64,000 nt of DNA from Alphaproteobacteria bacterium. GTDB taxonomy: Bacteria; Pseudomonadota; Alphaproteobacteria; RF32; CAG-239. Below the pieces are notes generated by a model. The model saw only the letters and a program-made list of their open reading frames with translations, did no database searches and was not told where the DNA came from. Where the stretch lies: positions 82,041 through 146,040 of the forward strand of contig JAZNJJ010000024.1 of assembly GCA_045577985.1 (NCBI GenBank), in the 5' to 3' direction. The position numbers were made by a program, and so were the translations under genes. Shown piece by piece: positions 50,182 through 58,439 of this stretch (position 1 is the stretch's first letter; every line of letters starts with the position of its first letter).

Positions 50182-50658
50182 TTAATCTATATCATCAAAT
50201 CCGTCATCACCGAAAGAATCATCTAATGAGTCATCACCAAAATCACTATCATCTAATTCAAGATCAGAACCTTCAGCATCTAAATCAATATCTTCATCAT
50301 CTCCATGAATTTGCATAACTTCGGTTAAATCCTCATCGCTGATCATATCACTAGAAAATTGTTCATCAAGATCAGACAATTCTTTTTCTGCAGCAAGAAT
50401 TTCAACTTCTTCATCTTCAGGTTCTTCAACTTCAACATAATGTTGTAATCCCATAACCAAAGATTTTTGTAAATCCTCAATACTAACTTTATTTTCTGAA
50501 ATTTCACGTAATGCAACAACAGAATTCTTATCATTATCTCTGTCTACGCACAAATGTGAACCAGCAGAAATATCTCTAGCTCTTTGAGCTGAGATTAAAA
50601 CTAAATCATAACGATTAGGAATTTTATCTATACAATCTTCAACAGTAACTCTTGCCAT
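50182..50658 (-). CDS. rpoZ: RNA polymerase omega subunit with an acidic C-terminal tail
   Basis: N-terminus [28 protein letters not shown], and its position upstream of spoT. Confidence 0.8.
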
Positions 50659-50738: not shown

Positions 50739-51980
50739 TTATGGAATTACAATAGGTGTTCCTGTGTAATGAGAGTTAAATTCAAATAATTTATCTCGCA
50801 ATGTGTAAATAAATGGTTTTACCGCTTCTATATCATTGTTATTTGTATTAAATATTTGTATTGTTGCTTCTATGAAATATTTATATTGTTGTTTTTCTTC
50901 TGGCGTATAATCATATGCATCTATCATTTCATATAAATAACCTTTTCTTAATAATCTTAATGTTGTTGCATAGGCATTGGAAATGTTTGCGACTCTGTAA
51001 GCTTTTATTGTTTTATCACAAGTATAGGCCCAATCATCAATGCCAAACGATTGTTCTCCTATAATATCTTGAAATTCGGATTGTAATCCTGTCCATTTTA
51101 TTTTTCGGGCAATTGTCTGACAAGGATTTACTAATCCTTTTAAAAAGGCTACATGAGTATTTGTTCCATTTTTTTCATCCCAATAATTTATTATAGGATC
51201 AATCATTATCATACGAATTTCATTTTTATTTGTAGCTTTGAATTTATGCAATCCATCTAATGTGGCCATAAAAGCTTTAACGTCGGCACTACTGAGAGGA
51301 GTATTTTTATCAGCGTAATAGTGGCGAATCCCGAGATTGGGTTCATTTTTATCATTGCCTAAAGCATAATCAGATACAGGGACTTTTTCTTTCACTTTTT
51401 TTATAAATTCCGGATTTATTCGTATCTTGTTTGTGTCTGGGGGGACATTTATTGGTTTGGGTATTTCTATTTTTTCCATGTCTTCACCCCAAAACAAAGG
51501 ACTTAAATATACGTACATAGCTGGAGAAGCAAATTCTATATCAGGGATTGACTGCATTCTTTTAGCAATTTTTTCTGGAAATTTATTTTTTGTTTCTTTT
51601 ATACCGGGCAAGTCTAAAATTTTGCCAGATAATCCCTTTGTTTGGTGTAATAATGGGCCAATATAAGGATACATTGATTTCGGCATACGTTTTATTGTTT
51701 GTAATATCTTTTCTTCGTCTGGATCATTTATTCTTTTTTCAATGGTTCCAAAATTAATGATGTTTTGTTTGAATTCCGTATCAAATATCGTTGGCATATC
51801 CCAACTGTATCGATATTTCCAATCATAATTTGAGTGTTTTCTTCTGTATTCTCTTTCTAATCGCCATATAAGAGGTAATTCTTCATTTAAATCTACGTCG
51901 TATAGATGTTCGTATTCTTTTAATTGTGCATTACATGGTATTGATATTAATAAAGCAATAAGAAAAAGTATTAAGTGCAT
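50739..51980 (-). CDS. hypothetical secreted protein (413 aa)
   Basis: Signal peptide MHLILFLIALLISIPCNAQ; no recognised domain. Confidence 0.5.
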   Translation of the reverse strand: MHLILFLIALLISIPCNAQLKEYEHLYDVDLNEELPLIWRLEREYRRKHSNYDWKYRYSWDMPTIFDTEFKQNIINFGTIEKRINDPDEEKILQTIKRMPKSMYPYIGPLLHQTKGLSGKILDLPGIKETKNKFPEKIAKRMQSIPDIEFASPAMYVYLSPLFWGEDMEKIEIPKPINVPPDTNKIRINPEFIKKVKEKVPVSDYALGNDKNEPNLGIRHYYADKNTPLSSADVKAFMATLDGLHKFKATNKNEIRMIMIDPIINYWDEKNGTNTHVAFLKGLVNPCQTIARKIKWTGLQSEFQDIIGEQSFGIDDWAYTCDKTIKAYRVANISNAYATTLRLLRKGYLYEMIDAYDYTPEEKQQYKYFIEATIQIFNTNNNDIEAVKPFIYTLRDKLFEFNSHYTGTPIVIP

Positions 51981-52562: not shown

Positions 52563-52574
52563 TTGTTTTATAAA

Positions 52575-52605
52575 AAAAGAGGCTCAGCCTCTTTTTTTTA
52601 TACAT
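52575..52605 (+). terminator. intrinsic terminator aaaaaagaggctcagcctctttttttt after gcrA
   Basis: Stem GAGGCT/AGCCTC followed by a T8 tract, 13 nt after the gcrA stop. Confidence 0.65.
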
Positions 52606-52655
52606 TTAAAGCATATATCAAAATAGTCGTTGTTTTAACAAAAAGGATATATGCT

Positions 52656-53807
52656 ATGGTTAGGTTTAATTATATAGGACTATTAAGTTTGTTGACAATT
52701 GGTATGATTTCAACAACAGCGAATGCTTCATCTTCTTTAGGTGAGGATTATACCAAATTTAAAAATTTATTAAATGAAAAATATGGATTTAATTACAATT
52801 TAAGTTATTCCGTTTTAGGTCAACATGCTTCACCGGGTGGAAAATATAATGCAGTACAATCGTACTTTTCTCCATCATTTACATGGACTAATTTTGATAA
52901 TGAATATGGAACAGGAGCATTGAATTTTTCATATAATAGTGTTTTCTATGGTCGTCATAATGCTGAAGATATTCAAAATAGAACAGGAATGGTAACACCT
53001 ATAAATGATTTTGATGATAATGCTCAGGAATTTGCTAATTTATATTATACATATCAATTTCCTAGAAAACTTAATTGGTTGACATTGGGTGTTGGTCAAT
53101 ATGGAATTTCTATGTTTGATGGAACAGCATATGATAATAACCAGCAAGTTAATTTTGTAAATTTTGCATTGTCTCAAAATGCAACATCAACATATTCTAC
53201 AGCTGGTCTGGGTTTCTTTATTCAAGCTAATCCTGGGAACTGGTCTTTTGTTGCAGGTGCTCAAGATGCAACAAATATTTCAGGTCCAAGTATCAGATTT
53301 AACCATTTGAATGAGGAACATTATGCCACATTTGGTTCAATCGGTTATAATCCTAATATTCCAAAATTAGGAAAAGGACAATACTCTGTATTGGTATATA
53401 ATCAGCCATATGTTAATGAGCAAAAACAATCAACAACAGGATGGTCAATAAATTTATCTCAAAATATTGGAGAGAAATTAAATTTGTTTGGTAGAATTAA
53501 TGGGGTAAATGGTAGTGTTTCTTCTATAAGTCAATCTTATGTTGCAGGCTTGGCTTATAATGATCCTTTAGATAGAAATGAATTGGATCAAATTGGTTTT
53601 GCTTATTCTTATAATAAAATTGATAAAGGTGCTGTTGGACAAGAATTGCATCATGATGCAGAACAAGTTTTAGAAGCTTATTGGGCTTGGGGTATCTCCA
53701 AGTGGGCAACGATTACTCCTGATTTTCAGTTCTATATTAATCCTGCTTTGAATAAAGGTTCTGATTATGGAACGGTTAGTTCTGTCAGATTAACATTATT
53801 CTTCTAA
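52656..53807 (+). CDS. outer-membrane beta-barrel porin-like protein; start corrected to MVRFNY
   Basis: Signal peptide ...TTANASSS and alternating beta-strand pattern with a C-terminal LTLFF (terminal Phe). The gcrA terminator lies inside the listed N-terminal extension, and an AAAGGA RBS sits 9 nt before nt 52656. Confidence 0.5.
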   Translation: MVRFNYIGLLSLLTIGMISTTANASSSLGEDYTKFKNLLNEKYGFNYNLSYSVLGQHASPGGKYNAVQSYFSPSFTWTNFDNEYGTGALNFSYNSVFYGRHNAEDIQNRTGMVTPINDFDDNAQEFANLYYTYQFPRKLNWLTLGVGQYGISMFDGTAYDNNQQVNFVNFALSQNATSTYSTAGLGFFIQANPGNWSFVAGAQDATNISGPSIRFNHLNEEHYATFGSIGYNPNIPKLGKGQYSVLVYNQPYVNEQKQSTTGWSINLSQNIGEKLNLFGRINGVNGSVSSISQSYVAGLAYNDPLDRNELDQIGFAYSYNKIDKGAVGQELHHDAEQVLEAYWAWGISKWATITPDFQFYINPALNKGSDYGTVSSVRLTLFF

Positions 53808-53908
53808 AATTAATGATAAAAATGTGAAACCGGCTGTTAATTAGTCGGTTTTTTTTTGTTTTTTTCTTTACATTGTGCAAATAAATGTGAATATTAAAAT
53901 GTTAATAT

Positions 53909-54457
53909 ATGTGTTTTGAGGACTTTATGAAGAAACTGAATATTTTTCTTTTTTTATTTGTATTGTGTGGCTGTACTAACAATAATGTTAAGTTAGTTCC
54001 AGGAATAGTTCCCAATTCAGCTAAAGAAAAACAAGTGGTGGAAGTAATGCCTAATAATATAATTGGAGAAATTGAACCTATTTACTTATTACCAATGAAA
54101 ACTCCTTTTTTATCGAGAATTGATACAGGAGCGGCAACCTCTTCTCTTGATGCAGAAGATGTTAAACATTTTGAGAGAGATGGTAATAAATGGGTTTCTT
54201 TTGTTATCGTTAATAGGGTTACTGGTGAAAGAGTTTTTTTTGAAAAACCAATCGAGCGTAGAACAAAAATTAAACGAATCGGAGATTATGAACGAAGAAC
54301 TATTGTAGAAATGGATGTGAAATTCGGTGGAGAATTTTTTAAGGCGGATTTTTCCATTGCGGAAAGAGAAAAATTTGAGTATCAGGTGTTAATCGGAAGA
54401 AATATTCTTAATGGTAGAGCTATAGTAGATGTTTCTCTTTCAAATACTTTAAAATAA
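53909..54457 (+). CDS. retropepsin-like aspartic protease-fold lipoprotein (the family annotated as 'ATP-dependent zinc protease', RimK-associated)
   Basis: Lipobox VLCGCT and the catalytic-type signature RIDTGAATSSLDA (D-T-G-A). Confidence 0.6.
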   Translation: MCFEDFMKKLNIFLFLFVLCGCTNNNVKLVPGIVPNSAKEKQVVEVMPNNIIGEIEPIYLLPMKTPFLSRIDTGAATSSLDAEDVKHFERDGNKWVSFVIVNRVTGERVFFEKPIERRTKIKRIGDYERRTIVEMDVKFGGEFFKADFSIAEREKFEYQVLIGRNILNGRAIVDVSLSNTLK

Positions 54458-54477
54458 TTTATGCATGGGACTTTTTT

Positions 54478-56013
54478 ATGAAAAAAATATTTTCAGTACG
54501 TGGTGTTTTAGTTGTTCTGTTGCTTTTAACAACGTTTTTTTCTGTATGGGCTACATATTATAAAATTAATTATTGGGGATTTAGTCTAAATCCAAACAAA
54601 GAAACAGATGTTTGGACGGTTGATGCTCATATTTCTTTTGAGCCAACAGGTGATGATATTGAGGTTTCTTTATCTATTCCTAGTATTAGCGAGGAATATA
54701 GGATATTAAGTGAAGATGTTGTTGCTCCAGGGTATGATATTGTTAAAGATGATGAAAAACATAGATTAAGATTGTTTTCAAAAGCTCAAGAATTAAAACA
54801 GGATTTATATTATAGGATAATGATTTATGATAATAAAGAATCCGATGCTGTTGTTAAAAATTATGAACAAGATGAGATAAAGATTGAAGAACCAAAGTTT
54901 TCTGATGAATTACAAGAAGGTATGGTTAATGAAATTTGGAATTTGGCTAATGAATATGAAGGTAGTGATGCCAGTAAAATAATTAAATTACTTAATGAAA
55001 AGCCGTTAAAACCACAAGTTGATTCTTTTTTGCCAATTCATAAAAATCAAAGAATTATGGCCGATAGTATTATTTATCTGTTATCTGTTAAGGGGATTCC
55101 GGCAAGAGTTGTTCGTGGTATAAAATTGACGGAGAAAAGAAAATCGGCGAAAGCTGATTTAATGATAGAAGTGTTTGAAAAGAAAAAATGGAAAGTTTAT
55201 AATATTGAAAACGGAAAATCAGGATTGCCTAAAAATTTTATTCTTTTTCAAAGAGGTGGTGTTTCTTTATTAGATGTTGTAGGTGGAGAAAAATCTAAAG
55301 TTAAATTTTCTGTGTTAAAATCTGTTGTTTCTTCATTTAAAATGGCGGGAAGACGTGCAAAATATGCAGAAAGTAAATTATTTGATTATACAATCTATAA
55401 TTTACCAATGTTAGAGCAAAATACTTTGAAATGGTTGATGATTTTTCCTCTAGGTATTTTGTTGGTTGTTTTAATGAGAAATGTTGTGGGTATTCGCACG
55501 ATGGGAACATTTACTCCCATGTTAATTGCAATGTCTTTAGTGAAAACGGGATTTGGCGCAGGGCTTGTTTGTTTTTCTTTAATTATCATTATGGGATTGC
55601 TAATAAGGTCTGCATTGACACGTCTTAATTTATTATTGGTTCCTCGAATTTCTGCTGTAGTGATTTGTGTTATTCTTATTATTCAAATGTTGACAATATT
55701 TGGGTATATCTCAAATTTTGTTATTGCTTCATCAGCGGTGTTCTTTCCAATTATTATTACAGCGTGGATTATTGAACGAGCCTCAATCACATGGGAAGAA
55801 GAAGGAGCTAAAAATGCATTTAAGCAGATTCTAAATAGTGTAATTGTGGCTATTTTTACGTATTTTGTTATTAGTAATGAAAATATTCGTCATATTATGT
55901 TTGCCTTTAACGAATGGAATTTAGTTATCTTGTTTATTATAATGCTTCTCGGTACATATACGGGGTATCGTCTGACTGAGTTAAAACGTTTTGCTCCTTT
56001 ATTAAAGGATTAA
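54478..56013 (+). CDS. transglutaminase-like extracytoplasmic domain fused to a C-terminal 7-TM module (the 'inactive transglutaminase fused to 7TM' family)
   Basis: N-terminal TM segment, an extracytoplasmic domain of about 300 aa, then about seven C-terminal TM helices; lies next to a RimK-like ligase. Confidence 0.55.
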   Translation: MKKIFSVRGVLVVLLLLTTFFSVWATYYKINYWGFSLNPNKETDVWTVDAHISFEPTGDDIEVSLSIPSISEEYRILSEDVVAPGYDIVKDDEKHRLRLFSKAQELKQDLYYRIMIYDNKESDAVVKNYEQDEIKIEEPKFSDELQEGMVNEIWNLANEYEGSDASKIIKLLNEKPLKPQVDSFLPIHKNQRIMADSIIYLLSVKGIPARVVRGIKLTEKRKSAKADLMIEVFEKKKWKVYNIENGKSGLPKNFILFQRGGVSLLDVVGGEKSKVKFSVLKSVVSSFKMAGRRAKYAESKLFDYTIYNLPMLEQNTLKWLMIFPLGILLVVLMRNVVGIRTMGTFTPMLIAMSLVKTGFGAGLVCFSLIIIMGLLIRSALTRLNLLLVPRISAVVICVILIIQMLTIFGYISNFVIASSAVFFPIIITAWIIERASITWEEEGAKNAFKQILNSVIVAIFTYFVISNENIRHIMFAFNEWNLVILFIIMLLGTYTGYRLTELKRFAPLLKD

Positions 56014-56017
56014 TTAT

Positions 56018-56968
56018 ATGATGAATTTATTTAACATTTTTTCATATTCTAGAAGACTAAAAGAAAAGGGTATTCTTGGTATGAATGCTCGTAATTATAA
56101 TATAATTGCAAAAAATAATAAGCGTTCATTGTATCCGTTAGTAGATGATAAAGTTCAAACAAAAAAACTTGCAAATTCCATAGATATAAATACGCCAAAG
56201 ATGATAGGTGTTATTGAACATCAATATGAAGTTGAAAATTTATTTGAGATTATTGAAGGATATTCAGAGTTTGTTATCAAACCTTCACATGGTAGTGGAG
56301 GTAAGGGAGTTTTGGTAATATGTCATTATGAACGAGGCGTTTTTATAACGCCGTCCGGAAAAGAGTTAACGTTTAAGGAAGTATATCAGCATATTTCGAA
56401 TATCTTGAGTGGTTTATATAGCTTAGGTGGTCAAGATGATGTGGTTTTAATTGAAGAACTTGTACATTTTAGTGATGTTTTTGAATGTTTTAGCTATCAG
56501 GGAGTTCCGGATGTTAGAGTGATTGTGTATAAGGGATATCCTGCTTTAGCTATGACTCGTTTAGCAACAAAGGAATCTGGCGGAAGAGCTAATTTACACC
56601 AAGGTGGCGTTGGTGTTGGATTAGATATAAAAACGGGGAAAACATTAAATGCAGTATGTCATAATTTACCAATTAAAAATCATCCGGATACAGGCGTTAA
56701 TTTAATGGACTTGCAGGTTCCATTGTGGCGAGAGCATTTGTTAATTGGGGCTCAGGCTTATGATATGACTGGATTAGGATATTTAGGAGCAGATATTGTT
56801 TTAGATAGAGATAGAGGTCCAATGTTATTGGAATTAAATGCTCGTCCAGGGTTAGCTATACAAATAGCAAATGGTCGTGGATTGCAATTTATATTAGATA
56901 AAATTGAAAAAACATATCCTAAAAATCTTTCAGCAAAAGAAAGAGTAGATTTTGTCTTGAATAATTAA
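56018..56968 (+). CDS. RimK-like ATP-grasp 'alpha-L-glutamate ligase-like' protein
   Basis: ATP-grasp motifs (FVIKPSHGSGGKGV, LLELNARPG) in a protein of about 316 aa. Confidence 0.75.
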   Translation: MMNLFNIFSYSRRLKEKGILGMNARNYNIIAKNNKRSLYPLVDDKVQTKKLANSIDINTPKMIGVIEHQYEVENLFEIIEGYSEFVIKPSHGSGGKGVLVICHYERGVFITPSGKELTFKEVYQHISNILSGLYSLGGQDDVVLIEELVHFSDVFECFSYQGVPDVRVIVYKGYPALAMTRLATKESGGRANLHQGGVGVGLDIKTGKTLNAVCHNLPIKNHPDTGVNLMDLQVPLWREHLLIGAQAYDMTGLGYLGADIVLDRDRGPMLLELNARPGLAIQIANGRGLQFILDKIEKTYPKNLSAKERVDFVLNN

Positions 56969-57001: not shown

Positions 57002-57622
57002 ATGAAAGGAAGAAATATGACTGACTTATTAGAAAAATCAGAAACAAAAAATATAGCAAAACCAGATACAAAGAATATAGAGGATGCAGATACAAAAAAA
57101 TTAGAAATGAGTGAAAGTCGGGCTAAAAAGATTAAACATTCATATAGTGTTAAAGATGCTGAAAATTCTTTATTATTAAAAACTGAAAGAGGTGATGTTG
57201 TTATTGAGATGTTTCCTGATGTTGCACCAAACCATGTAGCAAGAATAAAGGAATTAGTGCGTCAAGGATATTATAATGGATTGAGGTTTCATAGAGTTAT
57301 TGAAGGCTTTATGGCTCAGGCTGGTTGTCCAAAAGGTGATGGAACAGGTGGAAGTGGTGTTAAACTAAAAGCAGAATTTAATCGTATTCGTCATACACGA
57401 GGAATAGTTTCTATGGCTAGAGCTATGGATCCGGATTCTGCGGATAGTCAATTTTTTATTTGTTATGCTGATTGTCCTTGGTTGGATGGGCAATATACAG
57501 TTTGGGGTGAAGTTACTGCCGGAATGGAATATATTGATATGCTGAAAAAAGGCGGTGGAGCAAGTGGAATGGTTGCAAATCCCGATATTATTGTTTCAAT
57601 GACAGTTATTGCAGATATTTAA
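57002..57622 (+). CDS. ppiB: cyclophilin-type peptidyl-prolyl cis-trans isomerase
   Basis: RFHRVIEGFMAQAGCPKGDGTGGSG motif; the N-terminus carries a K/D-rich extension of about 45 aa. Confidence 0.85.
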   Translation: MKGRNMTDLLEKSETKNIAKPDTKNIEDADTKKLEMSESRAKKIKHSYSVKDAENSLLLKTERGDVVIEMFPDVAPNHVARIKELVRQGYYNGLRFHRVIEGFMAQAGCPKGDGTGGSGVKLKAEFNRIRHTRGIVSMARAMDPDSADSQFFICYADCPWLDGQYTVWGEVTAGMEYIDMLKKGGGASGMVANPDIIVSMTVIADI

Positions 57623-57643: not shown

Positions 57644-57677
57644 ATGTCCGAAAAAAGGGATCCCTTTTTTCGGACAT
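57644..57677. terminator. perfect 34-nt palindrome ATGTCCGAAAAAAGGGATCCCTTTTTTCGGACAT (copy 1); probable ppiB terminator
   Basis: Exact self-complementarity, located 22 nt after the ppiB stop and followed by T-rich sequence. Confidence 0.55.
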
Positions 57678-57750
57678 AAATTTACTATTTTTCTTTTTTC
57701 TCATTTATCATAAATTCAATATGTTAAAAAAATATTTACGCTCTAAAAAA

Positions 57751-57782
57751 TGTCCGAAAAAAAGGATCCTTTTTTTCGGACA
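57751..57782. promoter_or_regulatory. perfect 32-nt palindrome TGTCCGAAAAAAAGGATCCTTTTTTTCGGACA (copy 2) in the pilin-like gene leader, 19 nt upstream of its start
   Basis: Second copy of the copy-1 motif with a symmetric G>A / C>T change on both arms that preserves perfect pairing; it ends 7 nt before the AGGAGA RBS. Confidence 0.5.
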
Positions 57783-57800
57783 ATGGAAAGGAGAATAATA

Positions 57801-58439
57801 ATGAATAAAATGTGTAGAACCAATATTCAATCAGGTCGTTCAATGATTGAAATGCTTGGAGTTTTAGCGATTATCGGCGTGTTATCTGTAGGTGGTATTG
57901 CAGGTTATTCAAAAGCGATGATGAAATATCGAATCAATAAAACGATTGATCAAGTTACGCAAATTTCGCAAAATGTTAGAACTTTATATGCCAGATATAA
58001 ACAATATCGTAATTTAAATGAGAGAATTGCATATAAAGCTAATTTAGCCCCAAAAGAAATGTTCTATATGGCCTCTCGTGGTGTTTACGATATGACCAAT
58101 GATTGGGGAGGATATTTTTCTGTGCATTCAACGGGTTTTGATGTAAAAAGTTTTACAGTTGAAACCTCGAATTTACCGAATGAGGCATGCATAGAACTTG
58201 CTACGCAAGATTGGGGAAACCTAGATACTACTGGATTAATTTCAGTAAGTGTTACTAATGGGGATGATTTGGATCTACCAACCGAAGATGATTTAGTAGG
58301 AAATTGTTCTGGTAAAATAGGTAATGGTTATGCTATTGCTTGTTCCGGAGGATCTGTTGTTTCCATACCTATGCCAGTTGAAGTGGCGGTTGATGCTTGT
58401 GGAAATAAGAAGGGCAATATTATGTGGATTTTTCAATAA
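57801..58439 (+). CDS. type IV pilin-like / pseudopilin-like protein (prepilin-type N-terminal cleavage/methylation domain)
   Basis: MNKMCRTNIQSG | RSMIEMLGVLAIIGVLSVGGIAGY has a short basic leader, Gly at -1, Glu at +5 and a hydrophobic helix. The C-terminus has paired Cys residues (NCSG...IACSGG, DACGN). The start is set at the Met with an AGGAGA RBS, and the listed upstream extension crosses the palindrome. Confidence 0.55.
   Translation: MNKMCRTNIQSGRSMIEMLGVLAIIGVLSVGGIAGYSKAMMKYRINKTIDQVTQISQNVRTLYARYKQYRNLNERIAYKANLAPKEMFYMASRGVYDMTNDWGGYFSVHSTGFDVKSFTVETSNLPNEACIELATQDWGNLDTTGLISVSVTNGDDLDLPTEDDLVGNCSGKIGNGYAIACSGGSVVSIPMPVEVAVDACGNKKGNIMWIFQ

Follow-up and report, generated by a model that had tools for sequence, protein, structure and literature searches.

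An rloABC-type operon with a lipoprotein retropepsin in an uncultured gut- or rumen-associated alphaproteobacterium

Three consecutive plus-strand open reading frames at 53909–54457 (182 residues), 54478–56013 (511 residues) and 56018–56968 (316 residues) of a 64,000-nucleotide alphaproteobacterial sequence (the window; positions 82,041–146,040 of contig JAZNJJ010000024.1, assembly GCA_045577985.1) are almost certainly an orthologue of the rloABC operon of Pseudomonas aeruginosa (PA14_41700–41730/PA1768–PA1766; Lormand et al., mBio 2025, PMC12239564), and are referred to below as rloA, rloB and rloC. The system is known already as a named and partly characterized operon, and the features particular to the present copy are minor variants, namely that RloA is a lipoprotein lacking the disulfide, that a cyclophilin gene is appended and that the host is an alphaproteobacterium. 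The orthology taken together with a proposed mechanism, in which RloC would synthesize, RloB export and RloA trim an acidic product, can be held with fair confidence. A first-pass annotation of this DNA had placed the three genes at the same coordinates and on the same strand, and profile searches assign all three products to the families that it predicted.

The RloA proteases are dimeric retropepsins with a positively charged channel, as seen in crystal structures, and in vitro they cut stretches of at least eight glutamates (PMC12239564). P. aeruginosa lacking all three of its rloA paralogues dies in salt-free or low-osmolarity medium and also displays defects in biofilm formation, β-lactam tolerance and cell shape, and these defects of the triple mutant are suppressed by deletion of rloB or rloC (PMC12239564). 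In Vibrio cholerae VxrAB controls the rlo operon, and for the P. aeruginosa gene rloA2 a shared operon with creBC is predicted (PMC12239564). The rlo operon had also been hit in an earlier exopolysaccharide suppressor screen (PMC7314104), a result that fits a role in the cell envelope.

The arrangement of the three genes is conserved far beyond the present genome. Among 87 loci, 80 of them from named genomes fetched through RloB alone and seven from metagenome contigs, rloA lies directly upstream of rloB in all 85 loci with room for it and rloC lies directly downstream of rloB in 82 of the 83 with room, the lone exception being a Phycisphaerae metagenome-assembled genome (MAG; locus L043). The loci span uncultured gut and rumen Alphaproteobacteria, Gammaproteobacteria (Shewanella, Endozoicomonas, Marinobacter, Zobellella and Thioalkalivibrio), Nitrosomonas, Desulfobacterales and MAGs labelled Victivallales, Opitutales and Phycisphaerae. 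Adjacency of this regularity across phyla indicates a conserved functional module. The probability that functionally unrelated genes have come to lie side by side by chance is negligible, this reading being refuted by the cross-phylum linkage and by the epistasis observed in Pseudomonas, and the gaps here are of only 20 nucleotides between rloA and rloB and four between rloB and rloC. The RloB family comprises 1677 representatives at 50% clustering and E < 1e-3, of which 382 remain at E < 1e-30, with a uniform length of about 510 residues.

The rloA product matches PF05618 ('Zn_protease', now RimB-like) with an E-value of 4e-31 and carries the aspartic protease signature DTGA at residues 72–75 of the 182-residue form. 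The true start is probably the ATG at 53927 rather than that at 53909, since the former is preceded at a distance of four nucleotides by a GAGGA Shine–Dalgarno sequence and since the gene was independently called from the matching ATG on a metagenome contig (L001) that is almost identical. The gene would then occupy 53927–54457 and encode a protein of 176 residues starting at M7, in which the signature falls at residues 66–69; this numbering is used hereafter. The N-terminus (MKKLNIFLFLFVLCGC) fits the lipobox pattern, with VLCGC at the lipidation site, and the lipobox is kept throughout the alphaproteobacterial clade, pointing to a lipid-anchored periplasmic endopeptidase of the retropepsin type; the first-pass annotation had likewise read the protein as a lipoprotein with a DTGA signature.

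Alignment to the crystallized proteins 9g58, 9g59 and 2pma equates Lys46, Asp48, Arg92, Arg114 and Arg137 of P. aeruginosa RloA (RloA-Pa) with Arg64, Asp66, Arg111, Arg124 and Arg147 of the present protein. Asp66, Thr67, Gly68 and Arg124 are found in all 72 operon-linked RloA orthologues, Arg147 in 71 and Ala69 in 70, while a basic residue occupies position 64 in 71 (Arg or Lys) and position 111 in 65 of them. Mutation of Arg114 or Arg137 in RloA-Pa abolishes both activity and complementation (PMC12239564).

The product of rloB (54478–56013, plus strand) matches PF14400 (Transglut_i_TM; E = 5e-23) and PF14402 (7TM_transglut; E = 3.5e-82), in agreement with the prediction of an extracytoplasmic transglutaminase-like domain fused to a seven-transmembrane (7TM) module. 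Hydropathy and an AlphaFold2 model (mean predicted local distance difference test score, pLDDT, 87.8; predicted template-modelling score 0.77) place an N-terminal transmembrane helix before a β-rich and helical extracytoplasmic domain at approximately residues 34–310, followed by about seven transmembrane helices between residues 321 and 500 and a short basic cytoplasmic tail, consistent with an inner-membrane protein. No cysteine is present in residues 23–320, the sole cysteines being residues 365 and 397, both in transmembrane helices. The periplasmic domain therefore cannot use a Cys-His-Asp mechanism and is regarded as non-catalytic, so that the label 'transglutaminase-like' is a loose one. 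In this the domain differs from the putative cysteine protease 3isr, from TgpA of P. aeruginosa and from LapG, and it differs from them further in being fused to a 7TM module that has no solved structural counterpart.

Conservation in RloB is concentrated in the transmembrane core, which contains invariant arginine and glutamate residues, and the periplasmic domain is poorly conserved. Such a pattern would also fit a signalling module, in which RloB acts as a 7TM envelope sensor whose periplasmic domain binds a ligand, RloA processes RloB or a ligand, and RloC modifies a cytoplasmic target in response. In a sister clade whose RloB is 59% identical to the present one (L004, 2805–5167; L005, 1682–4044), rloABC is divergent from a cluster encoding a BOF-domain protein, an OmpR-type response regulator and a PhoQ-like kinase, which by analogy suggests envelope-stress control of the kind exerted by VxrAB in Vibrio and echoes the CreBC link in Pseudomonas. 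The adjacent two-component genes, the VxrAB control in V. cholerae and the predicted rloA2–creBC operon are all in keeping with signalling, but two-component adjacency fits regulation of the operon equally well. RloB moreover has no output domain, its C-terminal tails are short, basic and variable, and the suppressor genetics indicate a toxic product rather than a relay, which together leave the signalling interpretation quite improbable. The RloB C-terminus was also considered as an acidic acceptor of the RimK/LysW style; this was rejected, the tails of 83 orthologues being mostly basic, short and not conserved.

RloC, encoded at 56018–56968 on the plus strand, matches PF14397 (ATPgrasp_ST; E = 1e-83, 281 bits) and exceeds the cut-off of TIGR02291 ('alpha-L-glutamate ligase-like protein') with 419 against 314 bits, as expected from its initial description as an α-L-glutamate-ligase-like ATP-grasp enzyme. 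It has neither a transmembrane helix nor a signal peptide, consistent with a cytoplasmic location. The ATP-grasp residues align to the motifs of RimK, and those that are invariant in 84 operon-linked orthologues include Lys88 (VIKP), Gly92, Gly95 and Gly97 of the GSGGKG loop, the hinge residue Glu146, Arg167, Arg181, Asn192, His194 and Gly196 of the RANLHQGG motif, and the Mg-binding Asp259, Glu272 and Asn274. The catalytic residues, the loss of which the first-pass annotation had named as evidence against its assignment, are thus all present, and RloC is predicted to be an active ATP-grasp amide ligase.

The PDB structures closest to the AlphaFold2 model of RloC (pLDDT 82) are RimK, then ArgX/LysX and cyanophycin synthetase. 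These enzymes extend peptide or protein carboxylates. The LysX/ArgX–LysW ligases and cyanophycin synthetase share the ATP-grasp fold neighbourhood with RloC, but no carrier protein or primer is encoded near rloC and the identity is only 14–17%. RloC also lacks the pre-ATP-grasp domain of about 95 residues, its core beginning at approximately residue 43 compared with residue 99 in RimK. The short N-terminal segment that it has instead contains Gly18, Asn23, Arg25, Asn26, Asn34 and Arg36, all invariant across the 84 orthologues, although residues 18–41 (window positions 56069–56140) are unstructured in the model with pLDDT below 50. A segment that is invariant and yet unstructured suggests folding on a partner, most obviously the cytoplasmic face of RloB, and residues 18–41 may accordingly be viewed as a candidate partner-binding element.

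RloC resembles RimK in structure, and RloC and RloA are distant homologues of RimK and RimB, respectively, which raises the question of whether the triad is a cytoplasmic system of the RimABK type that polyglutamylates ribosomal protein S6. RimK and RimB form a cytoplasmic pair that makes and trims poly-α-glutamate (PMC11957791, PMC12239564), and the two systems have in common the pairing of an ATP-grasp ligase with a retropepsin-like endopeptidase. However, RimABK works on S6 in the cytoplasm and without a membrane partner, whereas RloA has a lipoprotein signal peptide, the gene for an integral membrane protein stands between the protease and ligase genes, and RloC is without the RimK N-terminal domain. 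The scores of RloC against the RimK models (TIGR00768, 40.5 bits against a cut-off of 143.4; the S6 ligase model PRK10446, 19 against 331) and of RloA against the RimB model (58 against 200) are all far too low, and Pseudomonas rimB shows no genetic interaction with the rloA genes (PMC12239564). A RimABK-type function is very improbable, family membership and localization both refuting it; the term 'RimK-like' originally applied to the third gene is a loose one, and RloC is not RimK proper. No further paralogues of RloA, RimB or RimK were found in the window, and none of RloA, RloB and RloC has a PADLOC match, so that a role in anti-phage defence was rejected.

The triad agrees with the P. aeruginosa operon in its three families, in their order and orientation, in an exported RloA with DTGA and the same basic Glu-binding residues, in a full-length RloB of like architecture, and in an RloC that belongs to TIGR02291/PF14397 and is about 50% identical to gammaproteobacterial orthologues. 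It differs in its host, a low-G+C (∼31%) uncultured gut or rumen alphaproteobacterium, whereas the 2025 paper stresses Gammaproteobacteria, in the appended cyclophilin gene and, in part of the clade, in an OprB/AaxA-like porin gene on the 5′ side. RloB is 33–41% identical to the fetched non-alphaproteobacterial orthologues (gammaproteobacterial, betaproteobacterial and other), among which there is no Pseudomonas locus. The present RloA differs from Pseudomonas RloA in being a lipoprotein, in having no cysteine in the mature domain and in having a flap that is shorter by about nine residues in the alignment with crystallized RloA.

The RloC product is taken to be an α-glutamyl chain on account of its closest relatives, RimK and LysX/ArgX, and of the specificity of RloA. 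Most likely, RloC would build an acidic, α-linked oligo- or polyglutamate in the cytoplasm, either free or on a carboxylate acceptor. RloB would be needed for this product to act in the envelope, as has been shown genetically in Pseudomonas; its 7TM core most likely translocates the product or presents it at the periplasmic face, with the Cys-free transglutaminase-like domain probably serving as a binding module and not as an enzyme. Lipid-anchored periplasmic RloA, as a dimeric retropepsin with a basic channel, would cut the polyglutamate and so keep the product of RloB and RloC below toxic levels, the output being envelope homeostasis in the form of osmotic tolerance, cell shape and vesiculation. 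The cleavage in vitro and the toxicity logic from suppressor genetics are Pseudomonas results, and it is the catalytic and Glu-binding residues that are conserved here. As a whole, this sequence of synthesis, export and trimming falls slightly short of an even chance of being correct. It corresponds to the earlier suggestion of ATP-dependent ligation of the glutamate type that is linked, in the envelope, with handling and cleavage at the membrane. A search of the window for an encoded poly-acidic substrate revealed no run of at least five glutamates or at least seven Asp/Glu residues in any reading frame of at least 80 residues.

Several observations weigh against the assignment or the mechanism. 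Of the NCBIfam models, RloA3 gives the best score for RloA, 99 bits with a cut-off of 210, and the scores for RloA2 (69 against 250), RloA1 (64 against 280) and the RloB model ('osmotic stress tolerance membrane protein'; 275 against 900) are likewise below their cut-offs. These models are of the 'equivalog' or 'exception' type and are tuned to close relatives in Pseudomonas, and the scores therefore indicate a distant orthologue without a match at the level of the name. A conserved cysteine pair forms a disulfide in periplasmic RloA orthologues (PMC12239564), and no cysteine follows the lipobox either in the present RloA or across the alphaproteobacterial clade, so that the disulfide is absent. 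The operon-linked RloA proteins fall into two subtypes, the first consisting of lipoproteins without the cysteine pair, which include all alphaproteobacterial copies and many gammaproteobacterial ones, some with long linkers, and the second consisting of soluble proteins with a plain signal peptide and a cysteine pair 47 residues apart, which occur in Nitrosomonas, Thioalkalivibrio and Guyparkeria and resemble the crystallized enzymes in these respects. The missing disulfide thus looks like a difference of subtype in the sequence comparison and not a reason for excluding the protein from rloABC. The cleavage of polyglutamate by RloA was observed in vitro with engineered substrates in the Pseudomonas work. 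The literature up to mid-2026 contains no paper found to name the RloC product in any organism; the view that the triad had neither a known product nor a known function accordingly stands with respect to the product, but not with respect to the function, the operon having been studied in P. aeruginosa by genetic, structural and biochemical means (PMC12239564). Lastly, Pfam names PF14397 'Sugar-transfer associated ATP-grasp', which hints at non-peptide acceptors.

The Pfam name would suit a different chemistry for the same operon, in which RloC attaches an amine or amino acid to an envelope precursor that is not a peptide, such as a sugar, a lipid-linked intermediate or a peptidoglycan stem, RloB flips or handles this precursor, and RloA acts physiologically on some acidic protein or peptide that has no connection with the RloC product. 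In RimK the acceptor is positioned by the pre-ATP-grasp domain, the absence of which from RloC is consistent with such a scheme, and the Pseudomonas phenotypes of altered cell shape and β-lactam sensitivity point to the cell wall. The Glu-coordinating arginines of RloA are, however, invariant across the operon-linked orthologues, and mutants in these arginines fail to complement in vivo, a result that connects the cutting of poly-acidic stretches with the function of the protein. That protease and ligase are so strictly found together is most readily accounted for if the two enzymes make and trim a single product, and the nearest structural relatives of RloC are peptide-carboxylate ligases. 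Modification of a non-peptide precursor is on these grounds considered unlikely, and synthesis, export and trimming of an acidic glutamyl chain is preferred.

A more specific form of the preferred mechanism can be put forward tentatively, although in its entirety it is rather doubtful. RloC and RloB would constitute a previously undescribed synthase–exporter pair that makes poly-α-glutamate or a similar polyanion and exports it. In the periplasm this polyanion would act as a buffer, either osmotic or of fixed charge, its length would be controlled by RloA, and the N-terminal segment of RloC would dock on the cytoplasmic face of the RloB 7TM module. To this system, gut and rumen Alphaproteobacteria would add a dedicated cytoplasmic cyclophilin and, in part of the clade, the OprB/AaxA-like porin.

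The rlo region has a G+C content of about 31% and a positive GC skew throughout. Its upstream boundary is set at 53826–53852 on the plus strand, since a terminator-like hairpin at this position, with an 11-base-pair stem containing four GC pairs followed by the T-run TTTTTGTTTT, closes the upstream porin gene. Between this hairpin and rloA lies a promoter-like site on the plus strand (TTTACA-17-AATATT, 53867–53895; 9/12 matches); promoter-like sites are not commoner here than in shuffled sequence, and the evidence for this one, which is argued from its position alone, is weak. Downstream, a cyclophilin-type peptidyl-prolyl isomerase (PF00160; E = 3e-43) is encoded on the plus strand at 57002–57622. 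No terminator-like site was seen in the gap of 33 nucleotides between rloC and this gene, and the two are probably co-transcribed. A perfect palindrome of 34 nucleotides at 57644–57677, 22 nucleotides past the cyclophilin stop codon, is likely to mark the 3′ end of the rlo transcription unit. A near-copy of this palindrome (ATGTCCGAAAAAAGGGATCCCTTTTTTCGGACAT) with three mismatches is located at 57750–57783, so that the two flank the intergenic region between the cyclophilin gene and a pilin gene; no such pair is expected by chance, and it may terminate transcription in both directions or represent a small palindromic repeat.

The cyclophilin gene is found directly 3′ of rloC in 29 of the 36 alphaproteobacterial loci with room for it, at gaps of 22–117 nucleotides, compared with none of 39 other loci, and the linkage persists where other flanking genes differ. 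The protein has no signal peptide and possesses a charged N-terminal extension of about 55 residues. Judged by gene order, the cyclophilin is a clade-specific neighbour that may be a member of the rlo system. In 17 alphaproteobacterial loci the gene directly before rloA encodes an OprB/AaxA-like porin. In the window, the OprB-family porin is encoded at 52563–53807 on the plus strand, with a probable start at 52656. Among NCBIfam models it best matches that of the chlamydial arginine porin AaxA, with 279 bits where the cut-off is 600, and no genes resembling aaxB or aaxC were seen near it.

Other neighbouring genes were noted in passing. A type IV pilin of the PilS/bundlin type is listed at 57750–58439 (plus strand) with an ATG that lies inside the second palindrome, and its real start is probably the downstream MNKM, giving a prepilin leader (GRS/MIEMLGVLAIIG). 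On the minus strand, a protein of 413 residues with a signal-peptide-like N-terminus and no Pfam match is encoded at 50739–51980, and in the closest relatives (L002, L006, L010–L012, L035, L038 and L039) it is kept beside gcrA. An RpoZ homologue (RNA polymerase ω subunit) of 158 residues, encoded at 50182–50658 on the minus strand, has a long, strongly acidic C-terminal tail rich in aspartate and glutamate and is approximately twice the usual length of ω.

The closest relatives of RloB are 50–72% identical and all derive from rumen, gut and faecal MAGs that bear the labels Alphaproteobacteria, Rhodospirillales or 'Azospirillum sp.', and a metagenome contig in ENA carries an identical RloB. The window also encodes GcrA, identified by a profile match. 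GcrA is an alphaproteobacterial cell-cycle regulator. The nature of these relatives and the presence of GcrA identify the host as an uncultured, low-G+C, gut- or rumen-associated alphaproteobacterium. Two loci labelled Lachnospiraceae (L015) and Lactobacillaceae (L036) carry rloABC of the alphaproteobacterial type (51–59% identity) and are probably mis-binned contigs.

The alphaproteobacterial host is a modest extension of the known range of rloABC. In P. aeruginosa, the operon touches osmotic tolerance, β-lactam sensitivity, biofilm formation and cell shape, and the loci compared here provide handles on its mechanism in the residues that never vary in the 7TM core of RloB and at the N-terminus of RloC, in the division of RloA into two subtypes and in the clade-specific linkage to cyclophilin. 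The occurrence of the full module, with every catalytic and substrate-binding residue intact, in small low-G+C genomes of uncultured gut and rumen Alphaproteobacteria indicates that its function is general to diderm envelopes and not a speciality of Pseudomonas or the Gammaproteobacteria.

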